Source: an uncultured Nitrososphaerota archaeon (GTDB lineage: Archaea; Thermoproteota; Nitrososphaeria; Nitrososphaerales; Nitrosopumilaceae). Taken from it: a stretch of 64,000 nt of DNA. The translations under genes and the position numbers were made by a program. How positions within the stretch are numbered: the stretch's first letter is position 1; each line of letters starts with the position of its first letter. Shown here in pieces: positions 1-45,026 of the stretch. The stretch is taken from NCBI GenBank assembly GCA_963701075.1, contig OY969559.1, positions 128,001-192,000 of the forward strand, read 5' to 3'. The notes below the pieces were generated by a model. It did not search any database. It was given only the letters and a program-made list of their open reading frames with translations, and was not told the DNA's origin.

Positions 1-2545
1 TGGCCAGTCAGAATATGCATCAGTGAATACATCTGCCGTTCCCACTTGTGCATTAGAAGGTATGAAAAATGAGAACGTCATATTAGAGTCTCCTGGAGTT
101 ACAGTGGACTTGATGGATGCCGTGCCGATACTACTCTGGTTGGTGTCAAAGAGATTCAGAGTAAAAAGTACAGGCATTGTTTCGCCAGAAGAGACTGAGA
201 CCTGTACAAAGTTATTCTGGTTTTCCTTTAGCATTGATACTGGATTGCCCTGTTGGTCAGTTAGCTGTACTGAATCTATTGATATTCCATGTGTTTTGAT
301 TACATTAAATGTTGTAGAGTTGGTATAGTTTTGTCCATCAACTAGTGCTGTTGCAATGTCTCGATAAACTCCTGTCTGAAAGTTGGATGGAATCTTGAAT
401 TGTATCTCGCCTGTACCGTTCTCGTCTGTAGTTATTGTTCTTGATACAATGTCATTTCCTGTAGGATCTGAAACTACAATTGCAATATTTTGAAGGCTTA
501 GGCCAGGCAATGCTACCTGTAGTGTTACAACATCACCATAGGCATAGTACTCTTGGTCGTTAGTTAGCAAGAGCGCTGGAGGCAAGATTGGGGCACCAGT
601 ATAGACTGTTGGAGAAGATACTATACTTGAGTTACTTGTAGTACTTGAATTTGTTATGCCTGAGATCGCAATACTTGGTGACTCTTCTGATTCATTGCTA
701 GCCGAGGTTTCTGTGCTAGTTGTTGTGGGAGCAACTATTGTTATCGAGTCAGAACCCAAATCACCGCCACCAGATGACTCTTCTATCGGTGCAGGAGTGG
801 ATGATTCTGAGATTACCTGTGAAGTGGATTGGTTACCAGCGACTGAAGTTACATTAGTAGAGTTTGATGAAGTAAGAGATGTGCTATTGTTTGTTTGAGT
901 TGTGCTTGTAGTTCCTGCACTAGATGAGGTTTGATTGCTTGGAGTTGATTGTGTTGTGCTTGTTGTGGAAGACTGGGTTGAATTTGAATTACTGGTAGAA
1001 TTAGTATTAGATAACGTTTTAGAGGAAGTAGAGTTTGTGCCAGATACCACAGTATTTGAGGTTCCAGTACTGTTGCTCGATGTTTGATGTGATGTACTGT
1101 TAGAAGTTGATTGGGTGGTTGGTGTACTGCTAGTTGATTGAGTAGTTGGTGTGTTTGATGTACTGTTAGAAGTTGATTGGGTGGTTGGTGTACTGCTAGT
1201 TGATTGAGTAGTTGGTGTGTTTGATGTACTGTTAGAAGTTGATTGGGTGGTTGGTGTACTGCTAGTTGATTGAGTAGTTGGTGTGTTTGATGTACTGTTA
1301 GAAGTTGATTGGGTGGTTGGTGTACTGCTAGTTGATTGAGTAGTTGGTGTGTTTGATGTACTGTTAGAAGTTGATTGGGTGGTTGGTGTACTGCTAGTTG
1401 ATTGAGTAGTTGGTGTGTTTGATGTACTGTTAGAAGTTGATTGGGTGGTTGGTGTACTGCTAGTTGATTGAGTAGTTGGTGTGTTTGATGTACTGTTAGA
1501 AGTTGATTGGGTGGTTGGTGTACTGCTAGTTGATTGAGTAGTTGGTGTGTTTGATGTACTGTTAGAAGTTGATTGGGTGGTTGGTGTACTGCTAGTTGAT
1601 TGAGTAGTTGGTGTGTTTGATGTACTGCTAGAAGTTGATTGGGTGGTTGGTGTACTGCTAGTTGATTGAGTAGTTGGTGTGTTTGATGTACTGTTAGAAG
1701 TTGGTGTAGTGGATGTACTGCTAGAAGTTGGTGTAGTGGATGTACTGCTAGAAGTTGGTGTAGTGGATGTACTGCTAGAAGTTGGTGTAGTGGATGTACT
1801 GCTAGAAGTTGGTGTAGTGGATGTACTGCTAGAAGTTGGTGTAGTGGATGTACTGCTAGAAGTTGGTGTAGTGGATGTACTGCTAGAAGTTGGTGTAGTG
1901 GATGTACTGCTAGAAGTTGGTGTAGTGGATGTACTGCTAGAAGTTGGTGTAGTGGATGTACTGCTAGAAGTTGATTGGGTGGTTGGTGTACTGCTAGTTG
2001 ATTGAGTAGTTGGTGTGTTTGATGTACTGTTAGAAGTTGATTGGGTGGTTGGTGTACTGCTAGTTGATTGAGTAGTTGGTGTGTTTGATGTACTGTTAGA
2101 AGTTGATTGGGTGGTTGGTGTACTGCTAGTTGATTGAGTAGTTGGTGTGTTTGATGTACTGTTAGAAGTTGATTGGGTGGTTGGTGTACTGCTAGTTGAT
2201 TGAGTAGTTGGTGTGTTTGATGTACTGTTAGAAGTTGATTGGGTGGTTGGTGTACTGCTAGTTGATTGAGTAGTTGGTGTGTTTGATGTACTGTTAGAAG
2301 TTGATTGGGTGGTTGGTGTACTGCTAGTTGATTGAGTAGTTGGTGTGTTTGATGTACTGTTAGAAGTTGGTGTAGTGGATGTACTGCTAGAAGTTGATTG
2401 GGTAGATGATGCGTTGTTAGAATAGTCAATAAATGTCAAAGTAGAAAATGCATGTTGCGGCATGAAAAAAACAGCAGAAATAGAAATCAGCTACAAATAC
2501 CATTAGCACAAATTTTCCTGCAGAGTGTGATCTTTTATGATTCAA
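1..2545 (-). CDS. Secreted Ser/Thr/Asn-rich mucin-like surface protein with C-terminal Ig/MG-like domains (3' end outside window; apparent frameshift at ~2490)
   Basis: The frame is absent from the ORF track. Manual translation gives a signal peptide (LNHKRSHSAGKFVLMVFV/LISISAVFFMPQHAFS), then S/T repeats, then ...TNDQEYYAYGDVVTLQV...DPTGNDIVSRTITTDENGTGEIQFKIP..., open to base 1. The frame break lies at AGCT 2489-2492. Confidence 0.8.
1091..2403 (-). repeat. Composite coding tandem repeat: 9 x 66 bp, 10 x 27 bp, 6 x 66 bp, 1 x 27 bp
   Basis: The 66-bp unit encodes SNTPTTQSTSSTPTTQSTSNST and the 27-bp unit encodes SSSTSTTPT. Copies are near-identical with no spacers. Confidence 0.95.
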
Positions 2546-2739
2546 AGTTGTCGAGTGTTCTCTACCAAGAATAAACCAATTAAAATGTCTAACGCTCAAA
2601 CGCCCTATGTACTCTTGTAGAGTAATGCCCATAATCTCCAAACTCCATGATGTTCTATCTCTAAATAATTTATAATGGATTGCGACACCTTGTTAAGGAA
2701 CAATGTTATCGATTGTATAAAGATTGGGTATCAATGATA

Positions 2740-2813
2740 TGGGTCCACAGGGATTTGAACCCTGGATCTTCGCCGTGTAAGGGCGACGTCATAACCAACT
2801 GGACTATGAACCC
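2740..2813 (-). tRNA. tRNA-Val(TAC)
   Basis: Reverse complement GGGTTCATAGTCCAGTTGGTTATGACGTCGCC-CTTACAC-GGCGAAGATCCAGGGTTCAAATCCCTGTGGACCCA forms a cloverleaf with anticodon TAC. Confidence 0.95.
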
Positions 2814-2899
2814 AAGCAAGCTCCAATTTAAAATGCATTTAAACTTTGAGAATTACATGAAGGAAAAATGGAAATTGTTCATTGGGTAAAATCTACAAT

Positions 2900-3916
2900 A
2901 TGACAGACTTGGTTTTCTTTACAAGCCCCATAGGATTGGGACACGCTACAAGAGATGTTGCGATTTTGCAGTACTTGGACAATATTCCAAAAAAATTCAT
3001 AAGCGGTGCAGGCGCATACAAGTTACTTTCTGGATACGGATTTGATGCAGACAATCTTTACAGACCTCCACCATTTAGAATTGAAAACGGCAAGCTTCAC
3101 AGCCCCCTTAGGTGGCTTTTTGATTACGTCGCATACTACAAAGAGTGCAAGAAAATCTCGATAAAAGTAATAGAAGATGAGATGCCTCGTCTGGTAGTAA
3201 GCGACGAGGATTTTGCATCACTTGCGATAGCACAGAAACAAAAGATCAAGACAGTCCTTGTCACTGATATTTTGGAGTCAAAATTTACAAAAGGGATTGG
3301 TTCCATCATAGAAAAAAAGATGAACAAAGCCATGAAAAGCATCATAGAAAAATGTGATCTTGTTATCATACCAGAGAATGGTCAAGACAACAATAACATG
3401 GTAAGAGTTGGACCAATAGTTAGGGATACTGCCGAGTCTCGTGAACAGCTGCGAAAAAAATATTCTTTTGACAGGAAAACAATCGTTGTAAGTATAGGTG
3501 GAACCAACCTTGGAGAATTTTTAATTGAAAGGACTGTAGAGGCGTTCAAAAAGATCAACCTTGATGCAGAACTTGTAATAGTATCTGGACCTGCTCTCCA
3601 GATGAAGCAATTGCCATATAGAAATTTGGGGTTTGTCAACAATCTGCATGAAATAATATTTGCATCAGACTTGGTAATATCTCTGGCAGGAAAATCCACC
3701 ATAGACGAATCAAAACATTACGGCACACCTGGAATATTTATCCCGATAAAGGGGCATTTTGAACAGGAAGAAAATGCAAGAGAGGTTGGATATTCTTATG
3801 AAGATATTTTCAGATTGGAAACTTTGATTCTAGAAAAGATAGATGGGAGAAGAAGCCCCCAGTATTTTCAGGGCAGTAAAAAAGCTGCAGAATTGATAAG
3901 AAAATTTTTGTACTAG
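2900..3916 (+). CDS. MurG-like / GT28 C-terminal domain glycosyltransferase
   Basis: GLGHATR N-terminal motif, VSIGG, DLVISLAGKSTIDE, PIKGHFEQEENA. Confidence 0.8.
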   Translation: MTDLVFFTSPIGLGHATRDVAILQYLDNIPKKFISGAGAYKLLSGYGFDADNLYRPPPFRIENGKLHSPLRWLFDYVAYYKECKKISIKVIEDEMPRLVVSDEDFASLAIAQKQKIKTVLVTDILESKFTKGIGSIIEKKMNKAMKSIIEKCDLVIIPENGQDNNNMVRVGPIVRDTAESREQLRKKYSFDRKTIVVSIGGTNLGEFLIERTVEAFKKINLDAELVIVSGPALQMKQLPYRNLGFVNNLHEIIFASDLVISLAGKSTIDESKHYGTPGIFIPIKGHFEQEENAREVGYSYEDIFRLETLILEKIDGRRSPQYFQGSKKAAELIRKFLY

Positions 3917-4196: not shown

Positions 4197-5612
4197 TTGC
4201 AGAATCTCATCGTAGCAAAGTTTGGAGGAAGTGCAGTAGGAATTGACGGTATACTAATACCTACAATAATTAAAAGAATTAATGAATTAAAAAAAGATTC
4301 CAAAGTGATTGCAGTTTTTTCGGCTCCCCTTACAACATATGACGGCAAACAAAGATCATTGACAGACATTGCGCTTGAGCTTGGCAGAAGGGCAGAAAAT
4401 GGTCAAAGTGTAGATGTCGAAGGGCTGCGCAAGCCATATCTTAAGATCCTCTCCCTTATAGACAAGAAACTTCAAGAAGAATGCAAAAAGACAATTGAGT
4501 CGTTCTTGGAGAGAGCGCTGAGCTCCCTCAGAGAGGCACTACAAAAAAAGGAATTTGCAAATGAGATCCGGGCAAGAGTTCTTGCATATTCTGGTGAGAT
4601 ACTAATGTCTAATGTCATGAGCTATGTTCTAAAAAGTGCCGGCATAAAATCAGATGTTGTAAGTTTTGACATGTGGCCCATTGTAACTGATGAAAATATC
4701 GAGTCTGCCAATTTTCTTGCTACGCAGTCATCTGAGAATTTAGATGGAATTGAATCTCTGCTTGAGAAAAACGATGTAATATCAATGGGAGGATTCATTG
4801 GAAAGACCACTAAGGGGCTTGAGACTACCTACGAGCGGGGTGGCTCTGACAGGACTGCTGCCGATCTTGGAATTTTGTTTAGCAAAAAGTACAATACCAA
4901 GATTGATTTTGAAAAAGACAGCGCCGTATTATCTGCAGACCCCCGTGTTGTAAAGGAAGAACTGGAATACATAACCCATCTCTCATACAACGAGGCACGA
5001 ATTGCAGGCATGTTTGGGATGAAGATTCTAGACCCCATTGCAATAAAGGAGATAGTCGAAAATGGAGTAGACATGCCAATCATAATAACTGACATGGGCA
5101 ATCCTGGCAAAATTACAATAATAGAAAGAAATCCAGGTGACGAAAATGGTCATCCGCTAAAAATAGTCACAGGAAAGAAAAACTGTGCCATCCTTAGAAT
5201 GGAAAGCAAGTCATCCCAAGATCTTTTTGATTCACTTGAAAAAGACAAAAGATACAGCGAATTTGTGGTACTATCCCCATTTACAAAAGATGACATAGAG
5301 TTTACAAGAATTCTCTTCCTAGATGGGGACTATGTAAAACGCAATGAAAGATATGTTTTGGCCTTTGATCCGTTGGCCTCAATCACCTACAACAGGGGAG
5401 TCATCACATTGATTGGCGATGAGATGTGGCGCGTGCAACAAATTGCGTCAAAGGCAAGCTCAAGAATTGGTGAAGCTGGTCTTAACATTCTCAACATGGA
5501 CGCACAAGAAGAGACATCACGTATAATCATAGTTACAGAAGACAGTGGTGACAACATAGAGCGGGCAATTTGCGCCGTTCACGCGGAAAGATCGAAAATA
5601 AAATTTGTGTGA
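4197..5612 (+). CDS. lysC: Aspartate kinase
   Basis: VAKFGGS, RGGSDRTA, DPRVV, LSYNEA...GMKILDP and a C-terminal ACT-like region. TTG start at 4197 is inferred. Confidence 0.88.
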   Translation: MQNLIVAKFGGSAVGIDGILIPTIIKRINELKKDSKVIAVFSAPLTTYDGKQRSLTDIALELGRRAENGQSVDVEGLRKPYLKILSLIDKKLQEECKKTIESFLERALSSLREALQKKEFANEIRARVLAYSGEILMSNVMSYVLKSAGIKSDVVSFDMWPIVTDENIESANFLATQSSENLDGIESLLEKNDVISMGGFIGKTTKGLETTYERGGSDRTAADLGILFSKKYNTKIDFEKDSAVLSADPRVVKEELEYITHLSYNEARIAGMFGMKILDPIAIKEIVENGVDMPIIITDMGNPGKITIIERNPGDENGHPLKIVTGKKNCAILRMESKSSQDLFDSLEKDKRYSEFVVLSPFTKDDIEFTRILFLDGDYVKRNERYVLAFDPLASITYNRGVITLIGDEMWRVQQIASKASSRIGEAGLNILNMDAQEETSRIIIVTEDSGDNIERAICAVHAERSKIKFV

Positions 5613-5641
5613 TGGTACTGGAATTGATAATCAGAAAATTT

Positions 5642-5716
5642 CTACTTTTTTCTTTTTCTACGTGCAGCCCTTTGGTCTGCCTTTCGCATATGCTTGCCTT
5701 TTTTTCGTGCTACCAT
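5642..5716 (-). CDS. 24-aa Lys/Arg-rich microprotein MVARKKGKHMRKADQRAARRKRKK
   Basis: Manual translation. A TATA-like GATATATC lies ~25-32 bp upstream. Below the ORF-track cutoff. Confidence 0.6.
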   Translation of the reverse strand: MVARKKGKHMRKADQRAARRKRKK

Positions 5717-5784
5717 ATGATGCCTGTAATGTATGGTACCGATATATCTTGTGTCATTTTGAATAAAATCAAAAATTCAGAAAA

Positions 5785-5883
5785 CATTCGACCTCTACAA
5801 GGCCTTTACCTGTAGAAGTCAAAGTGGGTTTGTTCTTGGGCCTTTTATCTAGAATCAGCCCGGCGTTACCCAAAACACGCGCT
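5785..5883 (-). ncRNA. Candidate structured non-coding RNA
   Basis: Minus strand has nested stems TGGGT/ACCCA and GGGC/GCCC plus a long hairpin TTTGACTTCTACAGG-TAAAGG-CCTTGTAGAGGTCGAA whose mismatches are G-U pairs on this strand. A TATA-like TAAATATTT lies upstream and a T-rich tail follows. Confidence 0.45.
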
Positions 5884-5927
5884 AATGTTAGTACGTAGAA
5901 GAAATATTTAGAGTTGATCTATATAGA

Positions 5928-6176
5928 TCAAGTATAGGCATTGCCTATAGCCATCAATACAAGAGCCGCCCCGATGAATGCATACCACTTGAAGTTCCTC
6001 TTGTTCAGGAACATGTTCTTTGGGGCCATATCTTCGTCTCGTACGGTAGAAAGACGCGCCTTTCTCATCTCAAATCCGTTTCCAGCAAGGCCTATGATTA
6101 GCAAGGCGGCAGCGGCAAATGAGATGATATAGCTCACACGGTAAGAGATCATAGTACTACATTTAAACAAAGCCAA
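5928..6176 (-). CDS. Small membrane protein (2 TM)
   Basis: Two hydrophobic segments. The true start is probably an internal Met. Confidence 0.65.
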   Translation of the reverse strand: MALFKCSTMISYRVSYIISFAAAALLIIGLAGNGFEMRKARLSTVRDEDMAPKNMFLNKRNFKWYAFIGAALVLMAIGNAYT

Positions 6177-6244
6177 GCATCTTTGCAGACCTCACTTGTG
6201 AAATCTCGATGAATTCTTAAATTACCAAAACTTTACCCAATCAT

Positions 6245-7159
6245 ATGAAAGAGCAGGGCAAGATATGGATGAACGGCAAACTTGTTCCGTTCAGAAACGC
6301 AAAGGTCCACGTTCTTACCCATGCACTACATTATTCCACTGCAGTCTTTGAGGGAATTAGGTGTTACAAGACAACAAAGGGTCCTGCAATTTTCAGGTTA
6401 CAAGAACATGTTGACAGGCTCTTCAAGTCTGCAAAGATCTATTCCATGAAAGTTCCCTACTCAAAAAAAGTGATCTCAGATGGCATAATCAAGACTGTAC
6501 TGGCAAGCGGATTAAAAGAGTGCTACATCAGACCCATTGCATACTATAGCTATGGAGTTCTTGGCCTTACACCAACGCCCAACAAGATAGATGTGGCAAT
6601 AGCATGCTGGGAGTGGAATACTGGCGAGTCAAGTGCTGGAAAAACTCACGGTGCAAGATGTAAAGTTTCAAGCTGGCTTAGAATTGATTCTAGGTCACAG
6701 CCAATGCAGGCAAAGGCAGCATCAAACTATGCAAATGCTGCGCTTGCAAGAGTAGAGGCCCTAAAAGACGGATATGATGAGGCAATAATGCTAAATTATC
6801 AGGGTAAGGTTTCAGAAGGAAGTGCTGAAAATATTTTCACAGTAAACAAGGGCGAGATAGCTACCCCGCCATTAAATGCCGGAATATTGGATGGAATAAC
6901 AAGAGACAGCGTAATCAAGATAGCAAGATCCGAGGGAATCAATATCATTGAAAGAGAGATTTCCAGGGACGAGCTATATACGGCAGATGAAGTTTTCATG
7001 ACAGGCACTGCTGCAGAAGTCAAATCTGTTACAGAGATTGACAATGTTGCTGTAGGAGACGGCAAAGTAGGCGAGATTACGTGCAAGCTGCAGGATGCAT
7101 TCCATGAGGCATCAAGAGGTAAGGACGAGCGGTTCATAGACTGGCTCACTCCAATCTGA
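6245..7159 (+). CDS. ilvE: Branched-chain amino acid aminotransferase
   Basis: HALHYSTAVFEGIRCY, AKAASNY, EGSAENIF, ILDGITR, FMTGTAAEV. Confidence 0.95.
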   Translation: MKEQGKIWMNGKLVPFRNAKVHVLTHALHYSTAVFEGIRCYKTTKGPAIFRLQEHVDRLFKSAKIYSMKVPYSKKVISDGIIKTVLASGLKECYIRPIAYYSYGVLGLTPTPNKIDVAIACWEWNTGESSAGKTHGARCKVSSWLRIDSRSQPMQAKAASNYANAALARVEALKDGYDEAIMLNYQGKVSEGSAENIFTVNKGEIATPPLNAGILDGITRDSVIKIARSEGINIIEREISRDELYTADEVFMTGTAAEVKSVTEIDNVAVGDGKVGEITCKLQDAFHEASRGKDERFIDWLTPI

Positions 7160-7214
7160 TACCGTGAAAGGTTCAATTACACCTGTACAAGATTATTATT
7201 TTATGGTTCTCTCA

Positions 7215-7376
7215 ATGGTAGACCAACACAAGCCCAAATGCTATATTTGTAGCAATGTGTTTGAAAATTTAGAAGAGCTTCGAGTGCACCAAGAGGTTGA
7301 CCACAAGGAATTTGTAGAGTTTCACAAGGACGTAAATGACCATTCTCCTGCGCCAGGAGATGTCACAGTATTTTAG
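7215..7376 (+). CDS. Small C2H2-type zinc-finger protein
   Basis: CYICSNVFENLEELRVHQEVDH (C-x2-C-x12-H-x4-H). Confidence 0.75.
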   Translation: MVDQHKPKCYICSNVFENLEELRVHQEVDHKEFVEFHKDVNDHSPAPGDVTVF

Positions 7377-7385
7377 GAAAATTGT

Positions 7386-7538
7386 ATGGACCCTGATAAT
7401 TCTGTACACATTTGTTGGTTTTGCAAAAAAGGCCGCCATGACGAATGCATGGAAAAGATTCCGACAGACGCCAAATCAGAAGGGCCACATGACTGTACCT
7501 TTGATACAAAGCTCATAGATTGCCAGTGTTCACACTAG
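7386..7538 (+). CDS. 50-aa Cys/His-rich microprotein
   Basis: Manual translation MDPDNSVHICWFCKKGRHDECMEKIPTDAKSEGPHDCTFDTKLIDCQCSH, starting 9 bp after the zinc-finger gene. Confidence 0.65.
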   Translation: MDPDNSVHICWFCKKGRHDECMEKIPTDAKSEGPHDCTFDTKLIDCQCSH

Positions 7539-7608
7539 ATTGTACCAAGAAATTAGTGCTTGATTTTATTTCCTGACAAAAGTTTTTGGCAAGGCACAAA
7601 AAAATATC

Positions 7609-8181
7609 CTAGACGTTTTTGGGTTTTCTTTTTTGCATTATCACTATGCCTGCCCCAGCGCCTGCTGCAGCAATAGCTATACCAACATAGATGAGTGTGT
7701 TGTCGTTAGTTGGGATTGGGTTTTGTACAGGCACAAAAACCTTGAACTCGCCAATAGCAATTGGGCTGTTTGGCCCATAAATCGAGGAAGGATAATTTGC
7801 ACGCAAAAATACTGGAAAGAGCCCGTCATTTGGGAATGCGTAACTTACAGAGAAGTTTCCATTTGGTACATTTATACTGCTGAAATTATAGTAGCCGCTT
7901 CCACCGGTAAAATTTACAACATTACCAACTGTAACTGAGGCAATAAAATTTTGCAGGGGCTTGCCAGTGGTTGCGTTTATAACATTGAATGTTAGGTTCG
8001 TGTAGTCATTAATGACTGGACTTGACGGGTAATAACTGAACTGCATTATTATTCCGTTTTGTTGTATCTGCTGAACTGGACTGCTTCCAAGCTGTGCATT
8101 TGCAGGCAAGACATGTAAAGTGGTTATCAATATAACAAGCAAAATTGGAACCGCATACAAGCAAAAAAATGGTTTCATCAA
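7609..8181 (-). CDS. Secreted, C-terminally membrane-anchored Ig-like protein
   Basis: Signal peptide, several N-x-S/T sequons, C-terminal TM plus basic tail. Resembles the protein at 17773-18336. Confidence 0.7.
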   Translation of the reverse strand: MMKPFFCLYAVPILLVILITTLHVLPANAQLGSSPVQQIQQNGIIMQFSYYPSSPVINDYTNLTFNVINATTGKPLQNFIASVTVGNVVNFTGGSGYYNFSSINVPNGNFSVSYAFPNDGLFPVFLRANYPSSIYGPNSPIAIGEFKVFVPVQNPIPTNDNTLIYVGIAIAAAGAGAGIVIMQKRKPKNV

Positions 8182-15676: not shown

Positions 15677-15730
15677 GCAAAATAGCAAACGCTAAATTCG
15701 TTATTTAAACTTGCCAAAAATAAGATGAAT

Positions 15731-16328
15731 TTAGTTTTTGACTGTCTCGATTTGAGAATATTTTTCCAGTATTTTTGTCAATACTGTAGAAACTGGAACA
15801 TTGTTCATCTTCTCTTTTTCTTCCAAGAGTTTTCGGTATGCATCAAGTGTGATGTATACTGGAATTGAACCATTGCCTTCCAATAGTCCACGAACTCTGT
15901 ACAGCGCAGTCTCCATTCCCTTCTCGGCAACTTTTGCAAACTTGACCTTGTTGAGAATTCCACCCAGAGGACCAAATGGCATTTCATAGTTTACTGTCAT
16001 GGTAACGCGGGTTGATTTCTCACCCAGTTCCTTGAACTCTACTGAAATATTCCATGCTTTGAATGGTCCTTTGATCATTTTCAGCTGCAATCTTTTGTTC
16101 TGGTATAAACTCAGTTGTTTCACAGTCCCACTCTAGTCTCTTGCCATCAAAGTCACCTATCACTCTAAAGGTTGTACCTACACCCATTCCTGCCTTTACA
16201 TCCATAGGAACTACGGTCATTCCTACTCGCTCTTCGAACTGGTCAGAAATGTGCTCTGGTCTTGCAAAGTATGTAAAAACATTCAAGGTCTTCTCTTTGA
16301 TGTCAATTGATTTACTGACAGATGTCAT
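15731..16328 (-). CDS. SRPBCC/START-domain (polyketide cyclase-like) protein, split by +1 indel at ~16085
   Basis: MTSVSKSIDIK...EFIPEQKIA / KMIKGPFKAW...YEMPFGPLG. Removing one base at AGCT 16083-16086 gives 199 codons. Confidence 0.8.
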
Positions 16329-16459
16329 ATACAGTGGGCAATCTTTTTCAACTTGATTTAAAGCTTTTGCTAATTTCCAGCGATCGTAAGACTTGGAGGG
16401 AATAGTTGAAGCATTCTCAGCTGTTCTGATTTGCGTCTTATGGTGTTGATCTAACAATA

Positions 16460-17744
16460 GGTTCTGTCAAGTTTATTGCTCATGAACTATCAAATAGATC
16501 GCAGTTATTGCAAAATAACCTCCTGATTTATTATATCGTATCAGCAGAATCTCCACACACTTGTTAGCTACCAAATCCATCAAACAATCATACCAACAAA
16601 ACAATGATCTTGACAGCATGATGGAAACATTTCGACAGATGGTAAACTATTGTATAAGATTGGGTCTTGAAAGCAATATTTCCACTCTAAAGAAATTCTC
16701 ATCACTTCATTACAAAGATCTAGAAAAATACAACATTCAATCAAAATACAAGCTTACTGCCATGTCTCAAGCTTGTGGAAGACTTGCGCAAATGAAAAAA
16801 GACATTAAGAAAGGCAAAACTCCAAAGTACCCATACGTACAGAAATCGTTCCTAGTCTCATGTTATGGCTTCAAGATAAACGGTCAATTACTTTCAATCC
16901 CAGTAGGAGATAGAAGACACATCCACATTATACTGAACTATCATACACAAGCAATTCTCTCAGACAAATCACTCAAGGTCAAATCATTTGTAATCACACC
17001 AGATTCAATCAGCCTTTGTGTACAAAAGGAAGTTGAAGAGATTGAATGCAATAGCACCATTGGAATAGACAGGAATCTACGAAATGTCACAGTAGGAAAC
17101 CATGATAAAGTAACAATGTATGACATGTCAGATATACCAGAAATCACACATCGTGCAAAAAAGATTATCTCATCATTCAAAAGAAATGACCATAGAATAA
17201 GACAAAAAATCTACTCCAAGATTAGTAATAGAAGAGCAAGAAGAGTAAAACAATTCCTCAACAGAATCTCAAAAGACATTGTACAAAAAGCAAGAGAATC
17301 CAAATCCATAATAGTATTTGAAGATTTGAAAGGTATTCGTAAACTCTACAAAAAAGGAAATGGTCAAGGGAAAAAATATCGTGGAATTATGAATTCATGG
17401 TCATTCTACGAGTTACAGAGACAGATACAATACAAAGCAGACTGGAAAGGAATTCCAGTACGATTTGTATCACCAGTACGCACCAGCATACTGTGTCCAA
17501 TATGCGGGGATAGAACCCAAGAGGATAGAGCACAACATCGTCAAGTTTGGTGCAGCAGTTGTAAAAAATTAATGGATCGTGACATTGTCGCAGCCATGAA
17601 TATCTCTTACAAGGGGTTGCAAAAGTTCTGCAATCCTAGTGGGCTTTCAGAAAAAGCAATGAGGGGGAACTTGGATAACGCAATGCCAGTAATCCTCCGA
17701 GTCGATGGAAGCAAGTTATCTCAACAACCAGAGATGACAGAACT
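16460..17744 (+). mobile_element. Non-autonomous TnpB element 1 with imperfect terminal inverted repeats
   Basis: Left end AGGTTCTGTCAAGTTTATTGCTCATG is 23/26 identical to the left end of element 2. Right end TGACAGAAC at 17735-17743. Confidence 0.7.
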
Positions 17745-17766
17745 TATTAAAGAAAAAGACCAGTAA
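16561..17766 (+). CDS. tnpB: TnpB (Cas12f-like) RNA-guided nuclease
   Basis: RuvC-I GIDRN, RuvC-II VFEDL, zinc finger CPIC..CSSC, RuvC-III DRDIVAAMNI. Confidence 0.92.
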   Translation: MLATKSIKQSYQQNNDLDSMMETFRQMVNYCIRLGLESNISTLKKFSSLHYKDLEKYNIQSKYKLTAMSQACGRLAQMKKDIKKGKTPKYPYVQKSFLVSCYGFKINGQLLSIPVGDRRHIHIILNYHTQAILSDKSLKVKSFVITPDSISLCVQKEVEEIECNSTIGIDRNLRNVTVGNHDKVTMYDMSDIPEITHRAKKIISSFKRNDHRIRQKIYSKISNRRARRVKQFLNRISKDIVQKARESKSIIVFEDLKGIRKLYKKGNGQGKKYRGIMNSWSFYELQRQIQYKADWKGIPVRFVSPVRTSILCPICGDRTQEDRAQHRQVWCSSCKKLMDRDIVAAMNISYKGLQKFCNPSGLSEKAMRGNLDNAMPVILRVDGSKLSQQPEMTELIKEKDQ

Positions 17767-17772
17767 AAAGAG

Positions 17773-18336
17773 ATGGTTAACTTTCGATTTCTAGTTGCCA
17801 TGTTTGCTTTAGTGTTAGTTCTTTCTCCCATGATACAATATGCAAGTGCCCATGAGGATCTAAACTCTGGCGACGAGTCGATAGGAAATTATGAAGTGCA
17901 GGTAGCAACAGACCCTGAGATCCCATCTGCCAACCAGCCTTTCAAATTAAGTTTTAGAGTTCTAAATTACCAATCAGCCTCTAATCTGTTCAATTCATTT
18001 GACACTAGGCTAAGCGAGGTTGATCACTTTAGGATGGGAATTAGAATTTATTACAACAACGAGCTAGTATCAACAATTCCAGTACAAGACTTCAAGGGCG
18101 GGGAGTGGTCTACTAATTACGTGTTTCATGAATCTGGGAACCATGTCATGTTCGTTGATCTCTATGATGTTGGACCTGGCGGACAGCCCCTGACCTTTAT
18201 TTACAATATCAGTGTGCTTGACGTATTTGGCCCACTATTTGTGTATATCATCTCAGCAGGAGGCATGTCATGCTTTGTCTTACTTGGATGGGTAGTAGTT
18301 ACAAATAAAAGAAAAAAAGTAAAATCTAAGCACTAG
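17773..18336 (+). CDS. Secreted, membrane-anchored Ig-like protein adjacent to the cox operon
   Basis: Signal peptide ending ASA|H (N-terminal His), YVFHESGNH, C-terminal TM. Confidence 0.65.
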   Translation: MVNFRFLVAMFALVLVLSPMIQYASAHEDLNSGDESIGNYEVQVATDPEIPSANQPFKLSFRVLNYQSASNLFNSFDTRLSEVDHFRMGIRIYYNNELVSTIPVQDFKGGEWSTNYVFHESGNHVMFVDLYDVGPGGQPLTFIYNISVLDVFGPLFVYIISAGGMSCFVLLGWVVVTNKRKKVKSKH

Positions 18337-18772
18337 CCTTTATTGTGGCACCGCAAGGAAGTTTGAAGGCATAGATTGCAGTGAGCAGGGTCATTGCAAA
18401 AAGCAAGATGCCAATACCATTATGAATTGCAACTATTGTTGCCTTGAGTTGTGTGTTGATGACAATTGCACCAAGCACTATCTGCGATGCTGCAAAAACT
18501 GCTGCAAGCGTTCCAGTGATTCTAAGGTTCTTGTGAGAGCCTGCAACTTTCCAGCTTGCAACGGCAGTAACTATTATCATAACACCAGTCATTGCAGCAA
18601 TTAATCTATGAGTCCATTCTGTCAAGTATGCTGCAGAAGGTAAGAATCCGCTAGGGCATAGCGGCCATTGTGGACACGCAAGTCCCTGTCCACTTGACTC
18701 TAGATATCCACCAATGAACATTAGAGAATAAAGAATTACCAGCGAAGCAAGTGCGAGATATTTGAAGTACAT
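18326..18772 (-). CDS. ctaA: Heme A synthase, single-domain CtaA/COX15
   Basis: GLACPQWPLC, EWTHRL, AIHNG. Confidence 0.88.
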   Translation of the reverse strand: MYFKYLALASLVILYSLMFIGGYLESSGQGLACPQWPLCPSGFLPSAAYLTEWTHRLIAAMTGVMIIVTAVASWKVAGSHKNLRITGTLAAVFAASQIVLGAIVINTQLKATIVAIHNGIGILLFAMTLLTAIYAFKLPCGATIKASA

Positions 18773-19789
18773 TTATTTTTCTACGATAAAGTGTCCGTCC
18801 ATTCCAAGTGCTGCATGTCCTGGGACAGTACAGATGTAATGGTATAATCCTGGAGTGCCTGCAACAAATGTTACAGTACCGGTATCTCCTGGTTTCATTG
18901 GACTATCTGGAGTTTTGTACGCTGCATTCCAGACAACTCCGCTTGGATTGTTTGGATCTGTCACTATGCCAAATGCGTGAAACACCTTGCTTGGATTGCT
19001 CACGTTAATTGTAACTGTGTCACCAGAGTGTACTGTAATGTCTGGGTTTGTTCCTGTGCCTCCCGTTCCATTAAAGCCATATTTTGAAAAGTCAGAACTG
19101 ACCTCAAAAGCAAGTGAGAACGACTCTGTATTTCCATTTGCTGCTGCAGTGCCACCAGTTCCTGCAGGGATGCTACTGGCTCCGCTTCCTCCTCCCACAA
19201 TTATCTCTCCTTGCATGCCAAGTTCTCTGTGGCCTGGGACTGCGCAGATATAGTAGTAAGTTCCGGCAGATGCCGGAATAAATGTAACAGTGCCACTTTG
19301 TCCAGGCTTCATTGGGCTGTCAGCAGTTCCAATTGTAGTGCCGTCAATTGCAGGTCCTGGACCACTTGTTGATGCGGTAATTGCAAATGCATGAAATGAT
19401 TTACCACCGTTTGTTACAGAAAATACAATTTTATCTCCAATGCTTGCGTTAACAGTCGGATTAGCCCCTGGAGAACCTGTTGGCGCATCAAAGCCATACT
19501 TTGAGAAGTCAGGCGACTCTACAAATTTTAGTGAGACGTCAATCTCTTTTCCTGTAAATGTTCCTTGGGTAGATGATGGGCCGCTGCCGGAAGTTTGATT
19601 TGCAGCTTGTGCTTCCATTTGCTGTTCTTGAAGTTTACCTGCATTTGGCAAGTAAGAGTTCCAATAATCATAATGTGTGAAAAAGAGGGCGCCGCCTATT
19701 ACTTGGACACCGATAATAATTGCAAGCATCTTTCCAAGTCTTTTAGAGGAGGTCCTATTGATTGGAGTTTCGTGTTCGTTATGGCTCAT
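18773..19789 (-). CDS. Membrane-anchored blue-copper protein with two type-1 cupredoxin domains
   Basis: FHAF...YYYICAVPGHRELGM and FHAF...YHYICTVPGHAALGM. Confidence 0.9.
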   Translation of the reverse strand: MSHNEHETPINRTSSKRLGKMLAIIIGVQVIGGALFFTHYDYWNSYLPNAGKLQEQQMEAQAANQTSGSGPSSTQGTFTGKEIDVSLKFVESPDFSKYGFDAPTGSPGANPTVNASIGDKIVFSVTNGGKSFHAFAITASTSGPGPAIDGTTIGTADSPMKPGQSGTVTFIPASAGTYYYICAVPGHRELGMQGEIIVGGGSGASSIPAGTGGTAAANGNTESFSLAFEVSSDFSKYGFNGTGGTGTNPDITVHSGDTVTINVSNPSKVFHAFGIVTDPNNPSGVVWNAAYKTPDSPMKPGDTGTVTFVAGTPGLYHYICTVPGHAALGMDGHFIVEK

Positions 19790-19790
19790 A

Positions 19791-21338
19791 TCAGTATCCT
19801 GAGTGGCCGCCGTGTGGATTCTTTGCTTCTACAGGATAGTAATACTTGCCACCAAGTCCCCATGGATCGTCCATATTGGCTGGCTTGCCTTTTGCGGCAT
19901 AGTATATCAATGAGGCTAAGAATACTGCAAAGCTTGCTCCAATTATCCACGCTCCAATTGTTGCAATCTGGTTTAGCTGTGTCCATGACGTAAATTCTGG
20001 CGGATAGTCATAGACTCTTCTTGGCATTCCTTCAAGACCAAGCAAGTGTTGTGTGAAGAACGTCTGAACAGTTCCCCAGAACATTGCGACAAAGTGAACG
20101 CTTGCCCATTTTTCGCTGTACATTCTTCCTGTGATATATGGGAACATGTAGTATATCATGGCTACAAATCCAAATCCAATTGTTCCTACAAGGAACAAGT
20201 GCATGTGGCCTACTACCCAATAAGTTCCGTGCGAGATAAAGTCTAACGGCATTGCAGAGTTTAGCACACCGCCAGCACCTGCAGAGAAAAATAACGCAAT
20301 TCCACCAACTGCAAACTTCATTGGAGCTGCAAATCTAATTCTGCCTCCCCACATTGTTGCAAGGAAGTTAAAGACATGCATTCCTGATGCAGGAACTGCA
20401 GCTAGAGTACCAATCATAAAGACTACCTTTGTTGTAAAGTCCATTCCAGTAGAGTACATGTGATGTCCCCAAGAGGCAAAGCCTATGATACCAAGCATGA
20501 CAAATGCAAAGACACCGGAGGCCTGACTGTATAGCGGCTTTCTTGAGAACCGTGGTATAATCTCATACATCATTCCAATTGATGGTAACAGGAATATGTA
20601 CACCTCAGGATGGAACGTGAACCAGAACAAATGCAAGTATGCAATTGGATCTCCGCCTGCAAATGGATTAAAGAACGCGGAAATTCCAAGTCTGTCGGTT
20701 AGCATCATGATAAGTGCCGCGGCATATGTTGGCATTGCAACAATTGTCATCAAGGAAACTGTAAACATTGACCATGCAAATAATGGAACTCTTCTCAATG
20801 GAAGGTCTGGGTGTTTGCATTTGAGAATTGTTACAACAAAGTTAATTGATGATAAAATTGAGGATATGCCAAGAATTTTCATACCAAATATGAACATGTC
20901 TGCAGCAGGCCCAGGTGCTCTGATTATAGAGTATGGAGCATATGAGACCCAACTCGTATCTGCAAATCCAAGCCAGAGTAGTGCACCACCAACTGGATTC
21001 ATCCAGAATGCGATTGCGTTAAGTTTTGGATACGCCATGTCTTTGTATCTAACCATGATTGGAACTAGATAGTTACCAATACCGTTTGCAACCGGCAGAG
21101 CAAACAGGAAGAGCATTGTCAGACCGTGAACTGTAAATATTCTGTTAAATGTTGCCGAGTCTGAGATTAGGACTCCTTCTCCTGGGAAGAACAAGTGTGT
21201 CCTGATTATCATGGCCAAAACTCCACCCATAAACAAGAATGTGAGACCGGTTATGGTATAGAGATAACCCACATCAGTGTGGTGTGTTGAAAACATTATC
21301 TGCCAGACTGGTCGTGGCTTTTGAAGTTCTAGTACCAT
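19791..21338 (-). CDS. coxA: Heme-copper oxidase subunit I
   Basis: TVHG, HPEVY, WGHHM, GHMH, GMPRR. Confidence 0.96.
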   Translation of the reverse strand: MVLELQKPRPVWQIMFSTHHTDVGYLYTITGLTFLFMGGVLAMIIRTHLFFPGEGVLISDSATFNRIFTVHGLTMLFLFALPVANGIGNYLVPIMVRYKDMAYPKLNAIAFWMNPVGGALLWLGFADTSWVSYAPYSIIRAPGPAADMFIFGMKILGISSILSSINFVVTILKCKHPDLPLRRVPLFAWSMFTVSLMTIVAMPTYAAALIMMLTDRLGISAFFNPFAGGDPIAYLHLFWFTFHPEVYIFLLPSIGMMYEIIPRFSRKPLYSQASGVFAFVMLGIIGFASWGHHMYSTGMDFTTKVVFMIGTLAAVPASGMHVFNFLATMWGGRIRFAAPMKFAVGGIALFFSAGAGGVLNSAMPLDFISHGTYWVVGHMHLFLVGTIGFGFVAMIYYMFPYITGRMYSEKWASVHFVAMFWGTVQTFFTQHLLGLEGMPRRVYDYPPEFTSWTQLNQIATIGAWIIGASFAVFLASLIYYAAKGKPANMDDPWGLGGKYYYPVEAKNPHGGHSGY

Positions 21339-40499: not shown

Positions 40500-40581
40500 T
40501 TTGATCCGTGTTATGATATACAGCATATTTCAAGGTGCTGTCAAATTAGATTCATAAAAATAACTATCTGGTGAGATCAAC

Positions 40582-40605
40582 AGGTTCTGTCAACTTGATG
40601 GCTCA
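40582..40605 (+). mobile_element. Solo terminal inverted repeat of the TnpB-element family
   Basis: AGGTTCTGTCAACTTGATGGCTCA is identical to 42123-42146. Confidence 0.8.
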
Positions 40606-40634: not shown

Positions 40635-40868
40635 TCATCCAAGAAGCCTTGAAAAATCTTCCACGCTCATTCCAGCATCATCTATTATTCTGCTCAACGT
40701 GCCTTTCTTCAACTCTTTATGCAAGGGAACAGTAAGCTTGATTATTTTATCAGCATGAACTTTTTCTAATCTCACATGACTGCCTTTCTGTCTTATGACC
40801 CTAAAACCAGCCTTACTGAGTGCCTTTATGACATCCTTGCCAGAAGTTATAGGTAGTTTGGTGCTCAA
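40635..40868 (-). CDS. hicA: HicA toxin
   Basis: GFRVIRQKGSHVRL...VPLHKELKKGTL. Confidence 0.92.
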   Translation of the reverse strand: MSTKLPITSGKDVIKALSKAGFRVIRQKGSHVRLEKVHADKIIKLTVPLHKELKKGTLSRIIDDAGMSVEDFSRLLG

Positions 40869-41056
40869 ATAGCAACCTCAACAATCTCCTTTCCTTCTGC
40901 TTTCTCAGTATATTCTAGATAAAGCTCTATGGCTTCTCGTATGTTGTGAAGTGTTTCTTCTTTTGTTTCACCTTCACTTATACATCCCGGAAGTGATGGT
41001 ACGTATGCAGTATAACCTCCCTCTTCTTGTGACTCGAGAACTACCTTGATCTTCAA
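40865..41056 (-). CDS. hicB: HicB antitoxin (short)
   Basis: EGGYTAYVPSLPGCISEGET.EE...NIREAIELYLE. Confidence 0.92.
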   Translation of the reverse strand: MKIKVVLESQEEGGYTAYVPSLPGCISEGETKEETLHNIREAIELYLEYTEKAEGKEIVEVAI

Positions 41057-42021: not shown

Positions 42022-42123
42022 CTTCGATTCACTCCATACCATAATCAAAAAACATGTTTTATTTCTTGTCTACGAGTTGTTTTGATGTGTTATTTCTTGT
42101 GTTTTGTTTGAATGCTAATCTTA

Positions 42124-43403
42124 GGTTCTGTCAACTTGATGGCTCATGGCAGGCATTGTAAACTTCTTGAGATATATCACAATTACCTGCTCTTTTAAGA
42201 AGATCAAAGATATCAAAAGCCTACCGTGTTATCAGTCAAATGTGTAACACAGAACCATCGCTGTGCCGAGATTGTACCAGTGATGAAGGATTTCAGGTCT
42301 GTTGTAAACGATGCAATAAAGCTGGGTATCGAACATAACATTACTTCGAGATTTAAACTACGAAGCCTGGTCTATCCAAGGTTTAACAAGATGATGTATT
42401 CTGGATATGTCTATACCGCAATTTGGAAGGCTTGTGCCATGCTCAAAAACTATCGCAGAACAAAAAAGAAGAATGCTCATGCCAGGATACCTGTCATGAA
42501 AAGTCACATCCTTGTAATTGATAACCAGAGATACGAGATAATCCACAACCATCTCAAGTTTCCAGTCAGGCCTAGGCAGTTTGTATACATTCCTCTCAAT
42601 CACTACGTTTGTAAAATTTTACTGCAACCAGGTCTGAAACTTGGTGAGGTTACATTAACTGAAGAAAAACTCTTCATATCTTATACAAAAGTGATATCCA
42701 AAAAGGAGCCAAAGGGATACATTGGAATTGACATGAACCTTGAGAACGCAACTGGCACAGATGAAAGCGGCACCACTACAATAGTAGACACATCTGATAT
42801 TGTATCAATGAAAGCAAAATACAGAGATGTACTGTCGCACTTTACAAGAAATGATGCCAAGATACAAAAGAGACTCAAACAAAAATATGGCAAGAAACAA
42901 AAAAACAAAGAAGATACATTCCTGCACCAGAAATCAAAGGAGATTGTATCACAAGGCAGGCAGGTCATAATGGAGAATCTCACCGGAATAAGAAGATTGT
43001 ACAGAAAAGGAAATGGTCAGGGAAAAAGGTTTAGGTTCAGACTAAACTCGTGGTCAAGATTCAAGTTGCAAAAGATGATAGAGTACAAGTCAGTTGATTG
43101 TAACGGCCTTGAAGTGATTTACATAAAACCAAATGGGACTTCATCGAGGTGTGCGACATGTGGGTCAAAACTAGTACCCGAAGAGCACCGAATGATGAGA
43201 TGTCCCTCCTGTCGTGTTACCACAGACAGGGACAAAAATGCCAGCAAGAATATTCTGGCTAGAGGCTTGGCAATGCTGGAACAGAAAGAACCAGCACGGT
43301 TCGAGCCTGACGCAGTGCAAGGTGAAGCGATGAAGCAGTTCAAAGATGTGGAGCAGATTGCACCGAGTCTACTTGTTGGACGAGCCATCAAGTTGACAGA
43401 ACC
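42124..43403 (+). mobile_element. Non-autonomous TnpB element 2 with perfect 22-bp TIRs and target-site duplication
   Basis: GGTTCTGTCAACTTGATGGCTC at 42124-42145, inverted at 43382-43403. Flanks are TAATCTTA and TAATCTTG. Confidence 0.9.
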
Positions 43404-43416
43404 TAATCTTGTGTGA
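42226..43416 (+). CDS. tnpB: TnpB (Cas12f-like) RNA-guided nuclease
   Basis: GIDMN, IMENL, CATC..CPSC, DRDKNASKNI. Confidence 0.92.
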   Translation: MLSVKCVTQNHRCAEIVPVMKDFRSVVNDAIKLGIEHNITSRFKLRSLVYPRFNKMMYSGYVYTAIWKACAMLKNYRRTKKKNAHARIPVMKSHILVIDNQRYEIIHNHLKFPVRPRQFVYIPLNHYVCKILLQPGLKLGEVTLTEEKLFISYTKVISKKEPKGYIGIDMNLENATGTDESGTTTIVDTSDIVSMKAKYRDVLSHFTRNDAKIQKRLKQKYGKKQKNKEDTFLHQKSKEIVSQGRQVIMENLTGIRRLYRKGNGQGKRFRFRLNSWSRFKLQKMIEYKSVDCNGLEVIYIKPNGTSSRCATCGSKLVPEEHRMMRCPSCRVTTDRDKNASKNILARGLAMLEQKEPARFEPDAVQGEAMKQFKDVEQIAPSLLVGRAIKLTEPNLV

Positions 43417-43713
43417 CTCGTCAGCAATCTTTTGCGAGATGTAATCAACATTTTTTCGCATGCCCTGAACTACTGGACTGTCCATATTAATCGAGTAAAG
43501 CTTGGCGTTTGCGATCTTCCGGTTTACCCTAATCATTCCAAATTCAACGAGATTGTCAAAGTACTTGTAAAACGTAGTCTTGCTCATGCCTAGTGCCTCA
43601 ATTATCTCCTTTTGCATAAAGTCATTTTTTGGAAAGTCCATAAGATAAGACAGGATCTTCATCTGGGGCGAGCTGCCATAGGCCCTAAGAAGAAGGGGAG
43701 ATGATTCCGACAT
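43369..43713 (-). CDS. Winged-helix protein, 3' end interrupted by the TnpB element
   Basis: KILSYL...EIIEALGMSKTTFY...GMIRVNRKIANAKLYSIN. The original tail (KISIQTKHKK*) lies left of the element at ~42090-42122. Confidence 0.75.
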   Translation of the reverse strand: MSESSPLLLRAYGSSPQMKILSYLMDFPKNDFMQKEIIEALGMSKTTFYKYFDNLVEFGMIRVNRKIANAKLYSINMDSPVVQGMRKNVDYISQKIADESHKIRFCQLDGSSNK

Positions 43714-44073: not shown

Positions 44074-44119
44074 TGCCTTCCGACAAGTCCTGCAGAGCCT
44101 GTTACAAGAAATTTCATAT
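44074..44119 (-). pseudogene. rmlD 5' fragment, copy 1
   Basis: Encodes MKFLVTGSAGLVGRQ. 45/46 identical to 44925-44970. Confidence 0.85.
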
Positions 44120-44161
44120 TTGATTACCTGCCTTACCATTTAGAACCAGCGTATTGTATAC

Positions 44162-44908: not shown

Positions 44909-44970
44909 GAGGTCTTGTATGACCTGCCTTCCGACAAGTCCCGCAGAGCCTGTTACAAGAAATTTCATAT
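44909..44970 (-). pseudogene. rmlD 5' fragment, copy 2
   Basis: Encodes MKFLVTGSAGLVGRQVIQDL and then diverges. Confidence 0.85.
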
Positions 44971-45026
44971 ATCATTTACACCAAAGGACTTGTTTTTAAA
45001 ATCAGATCATATACTTGCAACTTTTT

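Follow-up and report, generated by a model that had tools for sequence, protein, structure and literature searches.

A tnpB-only element with IS6-like terminal inverted repeats and an 8-bp target-site duplication in an ammonia-oxidising archaeon

We describe a 1280-bp element (element A, or WA; 42124-43403) of an uncultured ammonia-oxidising archaeon of the Nitrosopumilaceae. It carries tnpB alone, between true terminal inverted repeats, and is flanked by an 8-bp target-site duplication. It lies in a stretch of 64,000 nucleotides, referred to here as the window (GenBank assembly GCA_963701075.1, contig OY969559.1, positions 128,001 to 192,000 of the forward strand), and coordinates are those of the window unless a related locus is named. 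We consider it probable that element A is a non-autonomous DNA transposon whose cargo is an OMEGA module (tnpB plus omega-RNA) and which is moved in trans, likeliest by an archaeal IS6-family transposase. The features that this text leans on are the following.

42090..42116, minus strand: displaced 3' end of a winged-helix gene (SIQTKHKK plus stop), compared with the uninterrupted homologue P0121
42116..42123, no strand: left copy of the 8-bp target-site duplication, TAATCTTA
42124..42145, plus strand: left terminal inverted repeat (22-nt core; complementarity reaches 42121)
42226..43416, plus strand: tnpB open reading frame (ORF), 396 aa, GTG start, the only ORF between the repeats
43306..43367, plus strand: conserved core, presumed omega-RNA scaffold, overlapping the last tnpB codons
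43367..43397, plus strand: predicted terminal omega-RNA hairpin (minimum-free-energy and centroid folds)
43369..43713, minus strand: winged-helix regulator gene (weak Pfam helix-turn-helix matches), last 8 codons displaced by the insertion
43382..43403, minus strand: right terminal inverted repeat, tip ...ACAGAACC, last base 43403
43404..43411, no strand: right copy of the target-site duplication, TAATCTTG
43404..43423, plus strand: candidate omega-RNA guide segment (duplication plus flank)

Evidence for the insertion at the protein level comes from the gene that it interrupts. This winged-helix gene, encoded on the minus strand, can be read through ...DYISQKIADESHKI as far as 43405, and the missing SIQTKHKK and stop resume from 42116. 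A previous reading of this DNA, made from the sequence alone (the sequence-only reading), had proposed that removing the element and one target copy would restore the 3' end of this gene, and an uninterrupted homologue is in agreement: P0121 (111 aa, 97% identity) has the C-terminus ...ADESHKISIQTKHKK, and this ending, ...DESHKISIQTKHKK, joins base 43405 to base 42116. The winged-helix protein has 168 homologues, with lengths mostly of 104-116 aa among the best 120 of the 168. The occupied allele exceeds the empty one by 1288 nt, corresponding to the 1280-bp element plus 8 bp, and because the intact P0121 ends as predicted for the empty site, the insertion of 1280 + 8 bp into the 3' end of the winged-helix gene is proven at the protein level.

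The ends of the element proved to be longer than the perfect 22-bp inverted repeats that had been claimed, as the two arms (42121-42145 and 43382-43406) are complementary over 25 nt at 100%, although the TTA/TAA responsible for the extension to 25 nt may be assigned to the repeat or to the duplication alike. At up to three mismatches, the 22-mer (GGTTCTGTCAACTTGATGGCTC) occurs in four copies in the window (vs. 0.00 expected, 100 shuffles); the sequence-only reading had missed a third perfect 22-mer (40583-40604), a second element (16460-17744) and the TTA/TAA ambiguity. The 7/8 match that it had seen between the flanks, in turn, was confirmed (TAATCTTA vs. TAATCTTG), since a match of at least 7/8 was reached at 0 of 992 control offsets around the element, and by inspection the single mismatch falls at a synonymous position (CAC vs. 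CAT). DNA folding gave no separate hairpin at the left end (z = 0.28 and -0.04), and the right end has a subterminal hairpin ~6 nt from the tip.

We found that the only gene between these ends encodes a plausible nuclease of the TnpB type. The protein matches Cas12f1-like_TNB (PF07282, 9e-16) in Pfam, and residues 202-360 match TnpB and Cas12f structures among PDB sequences (phmmer). The RuvC D/E/D triad and zinc finger previously described as intact are invariant in an alignment of 16 homologous sequences (D169, E250 and D336; C309, C312, C326 and C329). The cysteines form a CxxC...CxxC zinc finger in the interval between RuvC-II and RuvC-III, and the three acidic residues are probably RuvC-like catalytic residues, judging from their motif context (IGID, MEN and DRD); the protein also bears a DRDxN motif. 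Its GTG start is backed by homologues sharing the N-terminus MLSVKC. The closest named relatives are from Nitrosotalea sp., with one protein 100% identical; among annotated plasmids and phages we found no annotated close relative (tblastn, matches of ~25-37% identity only). The conserved part of these TnpBs covers ~350 aa and the ORFs ~400 aa, and tnpB of element A reads through the right repeat to a stop 13 nt past the right tip, in the flank. The second tnpB ORF of the window (described below) also continues past its tip into the flank; therefore the last ~40 residues of both window TnpBs vary with the insertion site, and are translated RNA-gene sequence altered at each insertion.

Sequence comparison at the 3' end points to a structured omega-RNA whose coding region overlaps the end of tnpB and reaches as far as the right end of the transposon. 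The 62 nt of 43306-43367 are 100% identical to those of a related element (L001) that is 66% identical overall, and form the peak of the identity profile; within this core, a stem GUGCAA/UUGCAC has three compensatory pairs in another relative (L002; four-sequence alignment). The predicted hairpin at 43367-43397 follows, its 3' strand being the inner part of the right repeat, after which comes AGAACC. The same arrangement would apply to the second type of element in this family (B type, introduced below; 12 elements, last 160 nt before the tip), whose 3' ends contain two covarying helices: 92.3% of cells pair vs. 64.1% in shuffles, with 0 of 500 shuffles reaching the observed value and 28-40% pairing when the partner is slid, and there are changes on both sides in 11 of 13 pairs. 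The second helix, equivalent to the hairpin of element A, is 87.5% paired, with two-sided changes in 5 of 6 pairs, and joins upstream sequence to the inner right repeat, leaving ~7 nt unpaired at the tip.

In TnpB systems studied so far, the guide derives from the DNA immediately beyond the right end. Because the right repeat appears to form the last omega-RNA hairpin, the guide of element A would by analogy begin in the target duplication. The placing of the right repeat at the 3' end of the omega-RNA scaffold, and of the guide start in the duplication, had been suggested by the sequence-only reading, and both the predicted hairpin and the B-type covariation are consistent with it.

We then asked of related archaea whether the anatomy recurs, using a degenerate peptide-pattern scan of genome contigs (at least 600 stretches and at least 80 loci), from which 19 of 80 loci (L001-L018 and L031) were usable archaeal relatives, the other 61 being too distant and set aside; the source genome was not among the 80. 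Together with the window, these loci gave 23 TnpB copies for examination. The right tip (A/G)CAGA(A/G)C(C/T) was present in 16 of the 23, and degenerate versions of the right end in two further copies (L001 and L010); L003, L005 and L031 had nothing comparable to it, and the right ends of L016 and L017 were left out of the count (the 3' end of L017 runs off its contig). Both ends were recognisable in 10 elements, with lengths of 1099-1334 bp and room for tnpB only, and all TnpB-element ends compared start GG(T/C)TCTGT, with one mismatch allowed. The complementarity of the ends, ungapped, was 25/25 in element A, 24/25 in L014 (inside a longer arm of 29/36), 24/25 in L011b (counted from the printed end sequences), 22/25 in L004, 21/22 in L012, 21/24 in L011a, 20/21 in L010, 16/18 in L015a, 15/17 in L001 and 13/14 in the second window element. 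Elements bounded in the same way, for which a search in other Nitrososphaerota had been proposed as a check, recur in these loci, and two of them have perfect 8-bp duplications: L011a and L011b, on one Nitrosopumilus chromosome (L011), are flanked by 8/8 copies of TATGAAAT and GTAAATGG. With element A (7/8), a duplication of at least 7/8 was found in 3 of the 10 two-ended elements (vs. 10 of 9,920 control offset pairs).

The TnpBs fall into two types, A (element A, L001, L009, L002, L005 and L003) and B (the second window element, L006, L012 and others), whose proteins are 34% identical and which share the same kind of tips. Because L011b and the L014 element have 90.4% DNA identity at different sites in two Nitrosopumilus genomes, the family has moved recently.

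Further observations concern single loci. At L010, an IS110-family transposase ORF (2641-3680; PF01548 plus PF02371) begins at the right repeat of the TnpB element, which suggests an IS110 insertion aimed at that repeat. At L001, an outer inverted repeat (13/14; 2155-2168 and 3427-3440) surrounds the degenerate element ends, so the target of this insertion may have been a palindromic site or a different small element; 2 kb downstream there is a Cas6 gene. L003 has two different tnpB genes in tandem (5480-6646 and 6719-7852), the second with ~28% identity to the window TnpBs and an OrfB_IS605 domain. At L008, a left-oriented end 5 kb off matches the right repeat of a 5'-truncated tnpB over 19 nt, and ends at 10672, 15681 and 20152 stand in a setting that resembles a conjugative element (TraG-like ATPase, large membrane-like protein), which would fit a rearrangement, or else a larger unit bounded by similar ends. 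A possible 4.5-kb unit there (15681-20152) has similar ends and encodes a 677-aa protein, membrane-like by eye, and a 399-aa ORF that is Pfam-negative at 1e-6; Pfam at that threshold gave no sign of a transposase in it.

What transposase could recognise such ends? The accessible text of a review of the IS6 family (PMC7986276) describes its members as having GG tips, the motifs cTGTt and caaa, and repeats of 8 bp, and real IS6 ends taken from plasmid records (IS1216, GGTTCTGTTGCAAAG... / GGTTCTGTTGCAAAGTTT...; IS26, GGCACTGTTGCAAA) bear out the claimed resemblance; L011a shares the first 12 tip bases with IS1216. The ends of the TnpB elements therefore appear to be IS6-like. An archaeal comparison was available from an Asgard contig (L017), which encodes an intact 384-aa transposase (PF13610, 3.9e-17) whose plasmid matches are annotated as IS6 family, inside a 2.76-kb unit bounded by a 47-nt inverted repeat (81% complementarity). 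The right tip of this unit (GGTTCTGTTAACTCTTAGGGTGATA) matches the 14 TnpB-element ends at 14-18 of 25 positions, and its inner 17 nt reach at least 9 matches in 9 of the 14 ends vs. 255 of 20,000 random 17-mers (random expectation 4.4/17), although these 14 ends are mutually related and hence are not independent trials. A search with the Asgard transposase gave 5,735 matches; the sources named among the best 120 are Asgard and Bathyarchaeia only.

The L017 unit (704-3465) consists of this transposase, which has a SWIM finger, and three or four small passenger ORFs, with DUF5678 and weak aspartyl-protease-like and zinc-ribbon matches among them. It abuts a tnpB without its first ~134 codons, as an IS6 adjacent deletion would leave.

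A second lead lies closer to the elements themselves. On the Nitrosopumilus chromosome of L014, an IS6-family transposase pseudogene (16504-17249), frameshifted and 5'-truncated, lies 5 kb from the TnpB element and is 40-49% identical to the Asgard transposase. A putative tip 79 nt beyond it (GATTCTGTTGGGTTATGGGGAT) matches the repeat of the neighbouring TnpB element at 17/25 positions, with 10/17 in the inner part, a level reached by 22 of 5,000 random 17-mers. Searched against representative proteins, the L014 fragment gave 510 matches, mostly short fragments; for a relative of this fragment, the nearest atlas cluster is 98% PF13610 with Nitrososphaerota as the commonest known phylum, which is a lead only. 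In the same locus, a GC-rich, structured-looking stretch just before the truncated pseudogene (16165-16470) may be a non-coding RNA gene that received the IS as an insertion, or next to which the IS suffered its deletion. An IS of the DDE_Tnp_1 type that adjoins the L014 element was considered as its partner and rejected, as its ends (CGGGGTTGTTGCCAAATTCAC) are unrelated.

The sequence-only reading holds in part. Capture of tnpB by an IS6-like DDE transposon mobilised in trans is favoured by the recurring anatomy, the IS6 ends and the L014 pseudogene, but the window contains no matching intact transposase; the search for an IS6-type transposase with the same ends yielded the pseudogene 5 kb from the L014 element, with its 17/25 tip, and nothing intact in the window. 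The window has no IS6 gene by tblastn with four IS6 transposases, no DDE gene lies within the ends of any of the 10 bounded elements, and no PF13610 transposase lies inside element A, which would at most be a non-autonomous IS6 derivative.

A number of observations weigh against an IS6 source, and against the model more generally. Past the first 8 bases, the ends diverge from those of bacterial IS6 (1-8 matches in the inner 17 nt), and for element A these inner bases give 2 matches to IS1216 and 1 to IS26. The 'caaa' motif is shifted or absent in the ends compared, with GG and CTGT present. The left tip of the L017 unit is not GGTTC, which makes its true tip uncertain, and the 50 ORFs of the window include neither an IS6 transposase nor any other that is bounded by such ends. 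Of the ten two-ended elements, seven have no duplication (2-4 of 8), and no TAM-like motif (target-adjacent motif) is shared upstream of the three duplications (AATGC, TTTTG and TATTG). Furthermore, IS6 elements move by cointegrates that need resolution, a step that a tnpB-only unit would also have to complete; GG tips with 8-bp duplications are also found in the DDE families ISL3, IS1595 and ISH6. Finally, Thaumarchaea are reported to carry IS200/IS605 and IS607 transposases (accessible text of PMC6563490), a point that also favours one of the alternatives considered below.

The alternative that best survives these observations keeps the anatomy and changes only the trans-acting transposase, which would come from another DDE family (ISL3, IS1595/ISPna2 or ISH6) or from an undescribed one. 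It would account for the fact that the first 8 bases alone are shared with bacterial IS6 ends and that no matching intact transposase was found in the window. We nevertheless regard it as unlikely, given the controlled 14-18/25 resemblance to an archaeal IS6 end, the IS6 pseudogene with a similar tip that adjoins the L014 element, and the 12 tip bases that one end shares with IS1216.

Considerably less probable is that element A belongs to IS200/IS605 as a normal IS1341-type element (or to IS607) and travels in single-stranded form with the help of a Y1 TnpA, or of a serine recombinase, whose gene lies elsewhere; the inverted and flanking repeats would then be by-products of end hairpins and of similarity between the target and the cleavage site. 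Elements with tnpB only are usually classed there (PMC3627910 and PMC13565253, accessible text), the right end of element A does have a hairpin near its tip, and its DRDxN motif is one assigned to typical TnpBs (PMC10691335, accessible text). However, the two ends mirror each other over 25 nt and the left one is free of hairpins, three independent elements have different 8-bp duplications and hence no fixed target motif, and both families are defined by the absence of inverted ends and of a duplication. The anatomy had already been judged unlike IS200/IS605 or IS607, and the 25-nt symmetric ends and differing duplications uphold that judgement. Nor did we find a Y1 or serine transposase in the window or flanking the related TnpBs: Y1, serine and DDE transposases were absent from the 50 window ORFs, and Y1 and serine transposases from 108 ORFs of at least 95 aa, mostly within ~3 kb of a TnpB, at the 19 loci (108 scanned of 204 candidates). 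An IS200/IS605 or IS607 origin is accordingly disfavoured.

Least probable of all is an autonomous unit moved by TnpB itself, perhaps with its RNA, which would fit the tnpB-only content of 10/10 bounded elements, the old association of TnpB with these ends (the tips agree between types A and B, whose proteins have only 34% identity) and the place of the RuvC fold within the DDE transposase superfamily, but which is opposed by experiments on IS608, ISDra2 and IS607 in which TnpB was dispensable and not the transposase (cited in PMC3627910, accessible text) and by the resemblance of the ends to those of a family with its own transposase.

We therefore return to the reading of element A as an OMEGA cargo moved in trans, and outline how such an element could behave. 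Entry into the 3' end of the winged-helix gene would have been a DDE-type reaction in which staggered cuts gave rise to the 8-bp duplication. The transposase would have acted in trans, its likeliest source being an archaeal element of the IS6 family (DDE_Tnp_IS240), which we favour because IS6-family ends look like the element ends, and it would bind both repeats and insert the unit with an 8-bp stagger. The right repeat would then be used doubly, as DNA for the transposase site and, as RNA, with its inner part forming the last omega-RNA hairpin, leaving ~6-8 unpaired bases (ACAGAACC) to precede the guide. A guide composed of the 8-bp duplication and the right flank would match the occupied allele for 8 nt beside the left end only, so that self-targeting would not be expected, while the uninterrupted allele would match the guide fully and could be cleaved given a suitable TAM. 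Repair from the occupied copy would convert the empty allele, spreading or retaining the element.

A broader proposal, which we put forward tentatively and with less confidence than not, is that a compact archaeal TnpB lineage comprising both A and B types has long been resident in IS6-type ends as a parasite of IS6 transposases, with ~22 bases read twice and a homing drive. If this is true, each insertion directs the nuclease to those alleles of its site that are still uninterrupted, a copy-in transposon that never excises gains a homing drive, and the partnership of RNA-guided nuclease with inverted-repeat DDE transposon, so far described mostly for Fanzors of eukaryotes, is also old and widespread among archaea.

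The archaeon is of low GC, Rfam finds only two tRNAs in the window, and the site of element A lies inside a cell-surface sugar island, where the dTDP-rhamnose genes rmlA, rmlD, rmlB and rmlC are split by small accessory genes. Two further features of the window have ends of the same kind.

16460..17744, plus strand: second TnpB element, B type (WB), with a tnpB ORF at 16561-17766
40583..40604, plus strand: solo perfect 22-nt repeat in left-end orientation, in the interval between rmlA and hicA

The left end of the second element (GGTTCTGTCAAGTTTATTGCTC) matches the 22-mer of element A at 19/22 positions, and its tips (right tip TGACAGAACT) are complementary at 13/14; its TnpB is 34% identical to that of element A, and its flanks show no target duplication (4/8). 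The solo repeat has no inverted partner nearby, and may be what is left of an element since lost, or a trace of adjacent rearrangement of the IS6 type. Beside it, a toxin-antitoxin pair (hicA, 40635-40868, and hicB, 40865-41056, both on the minus strand) splits the rhamnose operon, and weaker look-alikes of the 22-mer occur in the orientation of the solo repeat at 40534 and 41088; a unit of the solo repeat with hicAB, resembling a miniature inverted-repeat transposable element (MITE), was rejected when an inverted partner was sought and none found. In the interval between rmlD and rmlB, a 52-nt direct repeat (94% identity; 44074-44125 and 44925-44976, spacing 851 bp) adjoins two small minus-strand ORFs, one of them weakly ParE-like (E = 0.004), and this looks like duplicated small accessory cassettes.

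Current models treat TnpB as the partner of a Y1 or serine TnpA that excises without a scar, after which TnpB cleaves the vacated donor site and the element is restored there by copying. This scheme is hard to apply to an OMEGA module in IS6-like ends, as it would copy in, leave a duplication and have no fixed target motif to serve as TAM. The system is small and testable (a 1.28-kb element, known empty and filled sites, natural variants), and makes it possible to address what use an RNA-guided nuclease is to a prokaryotic DDE transposon, how the need for a TAM is met when targets are not fixed, and how a transposase and a guide RNA can make use of a single sequence. Compact TnpBs of mesophilic archaea with defined right ends are also added candidates for genome editing, and archaeal genes found as tnpB only should not be filed automatically under IS200/IS605.

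How does element A compare with systems already described? The novelty implied by the sequence-only reading was overstated, since TnpBs in DDE inverted-repeat transposons, and solo TnpBs, have been published. Six TnpB branches associated with DDE transposases (DDE-1 to DDE-6) were reported by Altae-Tran et al. (2023, PNAS); inverted terminal repeats occur in all six, and there are solo TnpBs whose flanking ends resemble those of relatives with a transposase (PMC10691335, accessible text). Element A is like the DDE branches in having a TnpB inside an inverted-repeat transposon with its 3' end near the transposon end (as given in the accessible text of PMC10691335), and unlike them in that the bounded copies here have no transposase, in its 8-bp duplication, in its Nitrososphaerota host and in its DRDxN motif. 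The DDE partners named in the accessible text of that paper and of a 2026 review (PMC13565253) are IS630, ISL2 and IS1031, not IS6. Literature searches pairing TnpB with IS6 gave no title on such an association among the matches listed, and those pairing TnpB with thaumarchaeal names gave no TnpB paper among the matches listed. What may be new here is the variant with IS6-like ends, TnpB within DDE inverted-repeat transposons having been published already.

With the IS6 family itself (IS26, IS257, IS1216 and archaeal clades; Varani et al., 2021, PMC7986276, accessible text), element A shares the GG tips, the cTGT at positions 5-8 and the 8-bp duplication; it is unlike IS6 in having no IS6 transposase inside, in its RNA-guided nuclease cargo and in an inner repeat that differs from bacterial ends. 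The accessible text of the same review names only two IS6 MITEs and a single member with a passenger gene, and the word 'TnpB' is absent from that text. IS200/IS605 and IS607 elements are described as having no inverted ends and no target duplication (PMC3627910 and PMC13565253, accessible text). Within the IS1341 group, tnpB is likewise the sole gene and the omega-RNA overlaps the ORF at its 3' end as well as the right end, but these elements have hairpins at both ends, a fixed 4-5-nt insertion motif and no duplication, and element A differs throughout. Among described systems there is also Fanzor1, a TnpB homologue that is a passenger in DDE transposons with inverted ends and target duplications, often non-autonomous; one of its carriers, of the IS4 type, has duplications of 8 bp (Bao and Jurka, 2013, PMC3627910, accessible text). 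Its hosts, in contrast, are eukaryotes or viruses of these and its proteins larger, whereas element A belongs to an archaeon and has a compact TnpB ORF of 396 aa.

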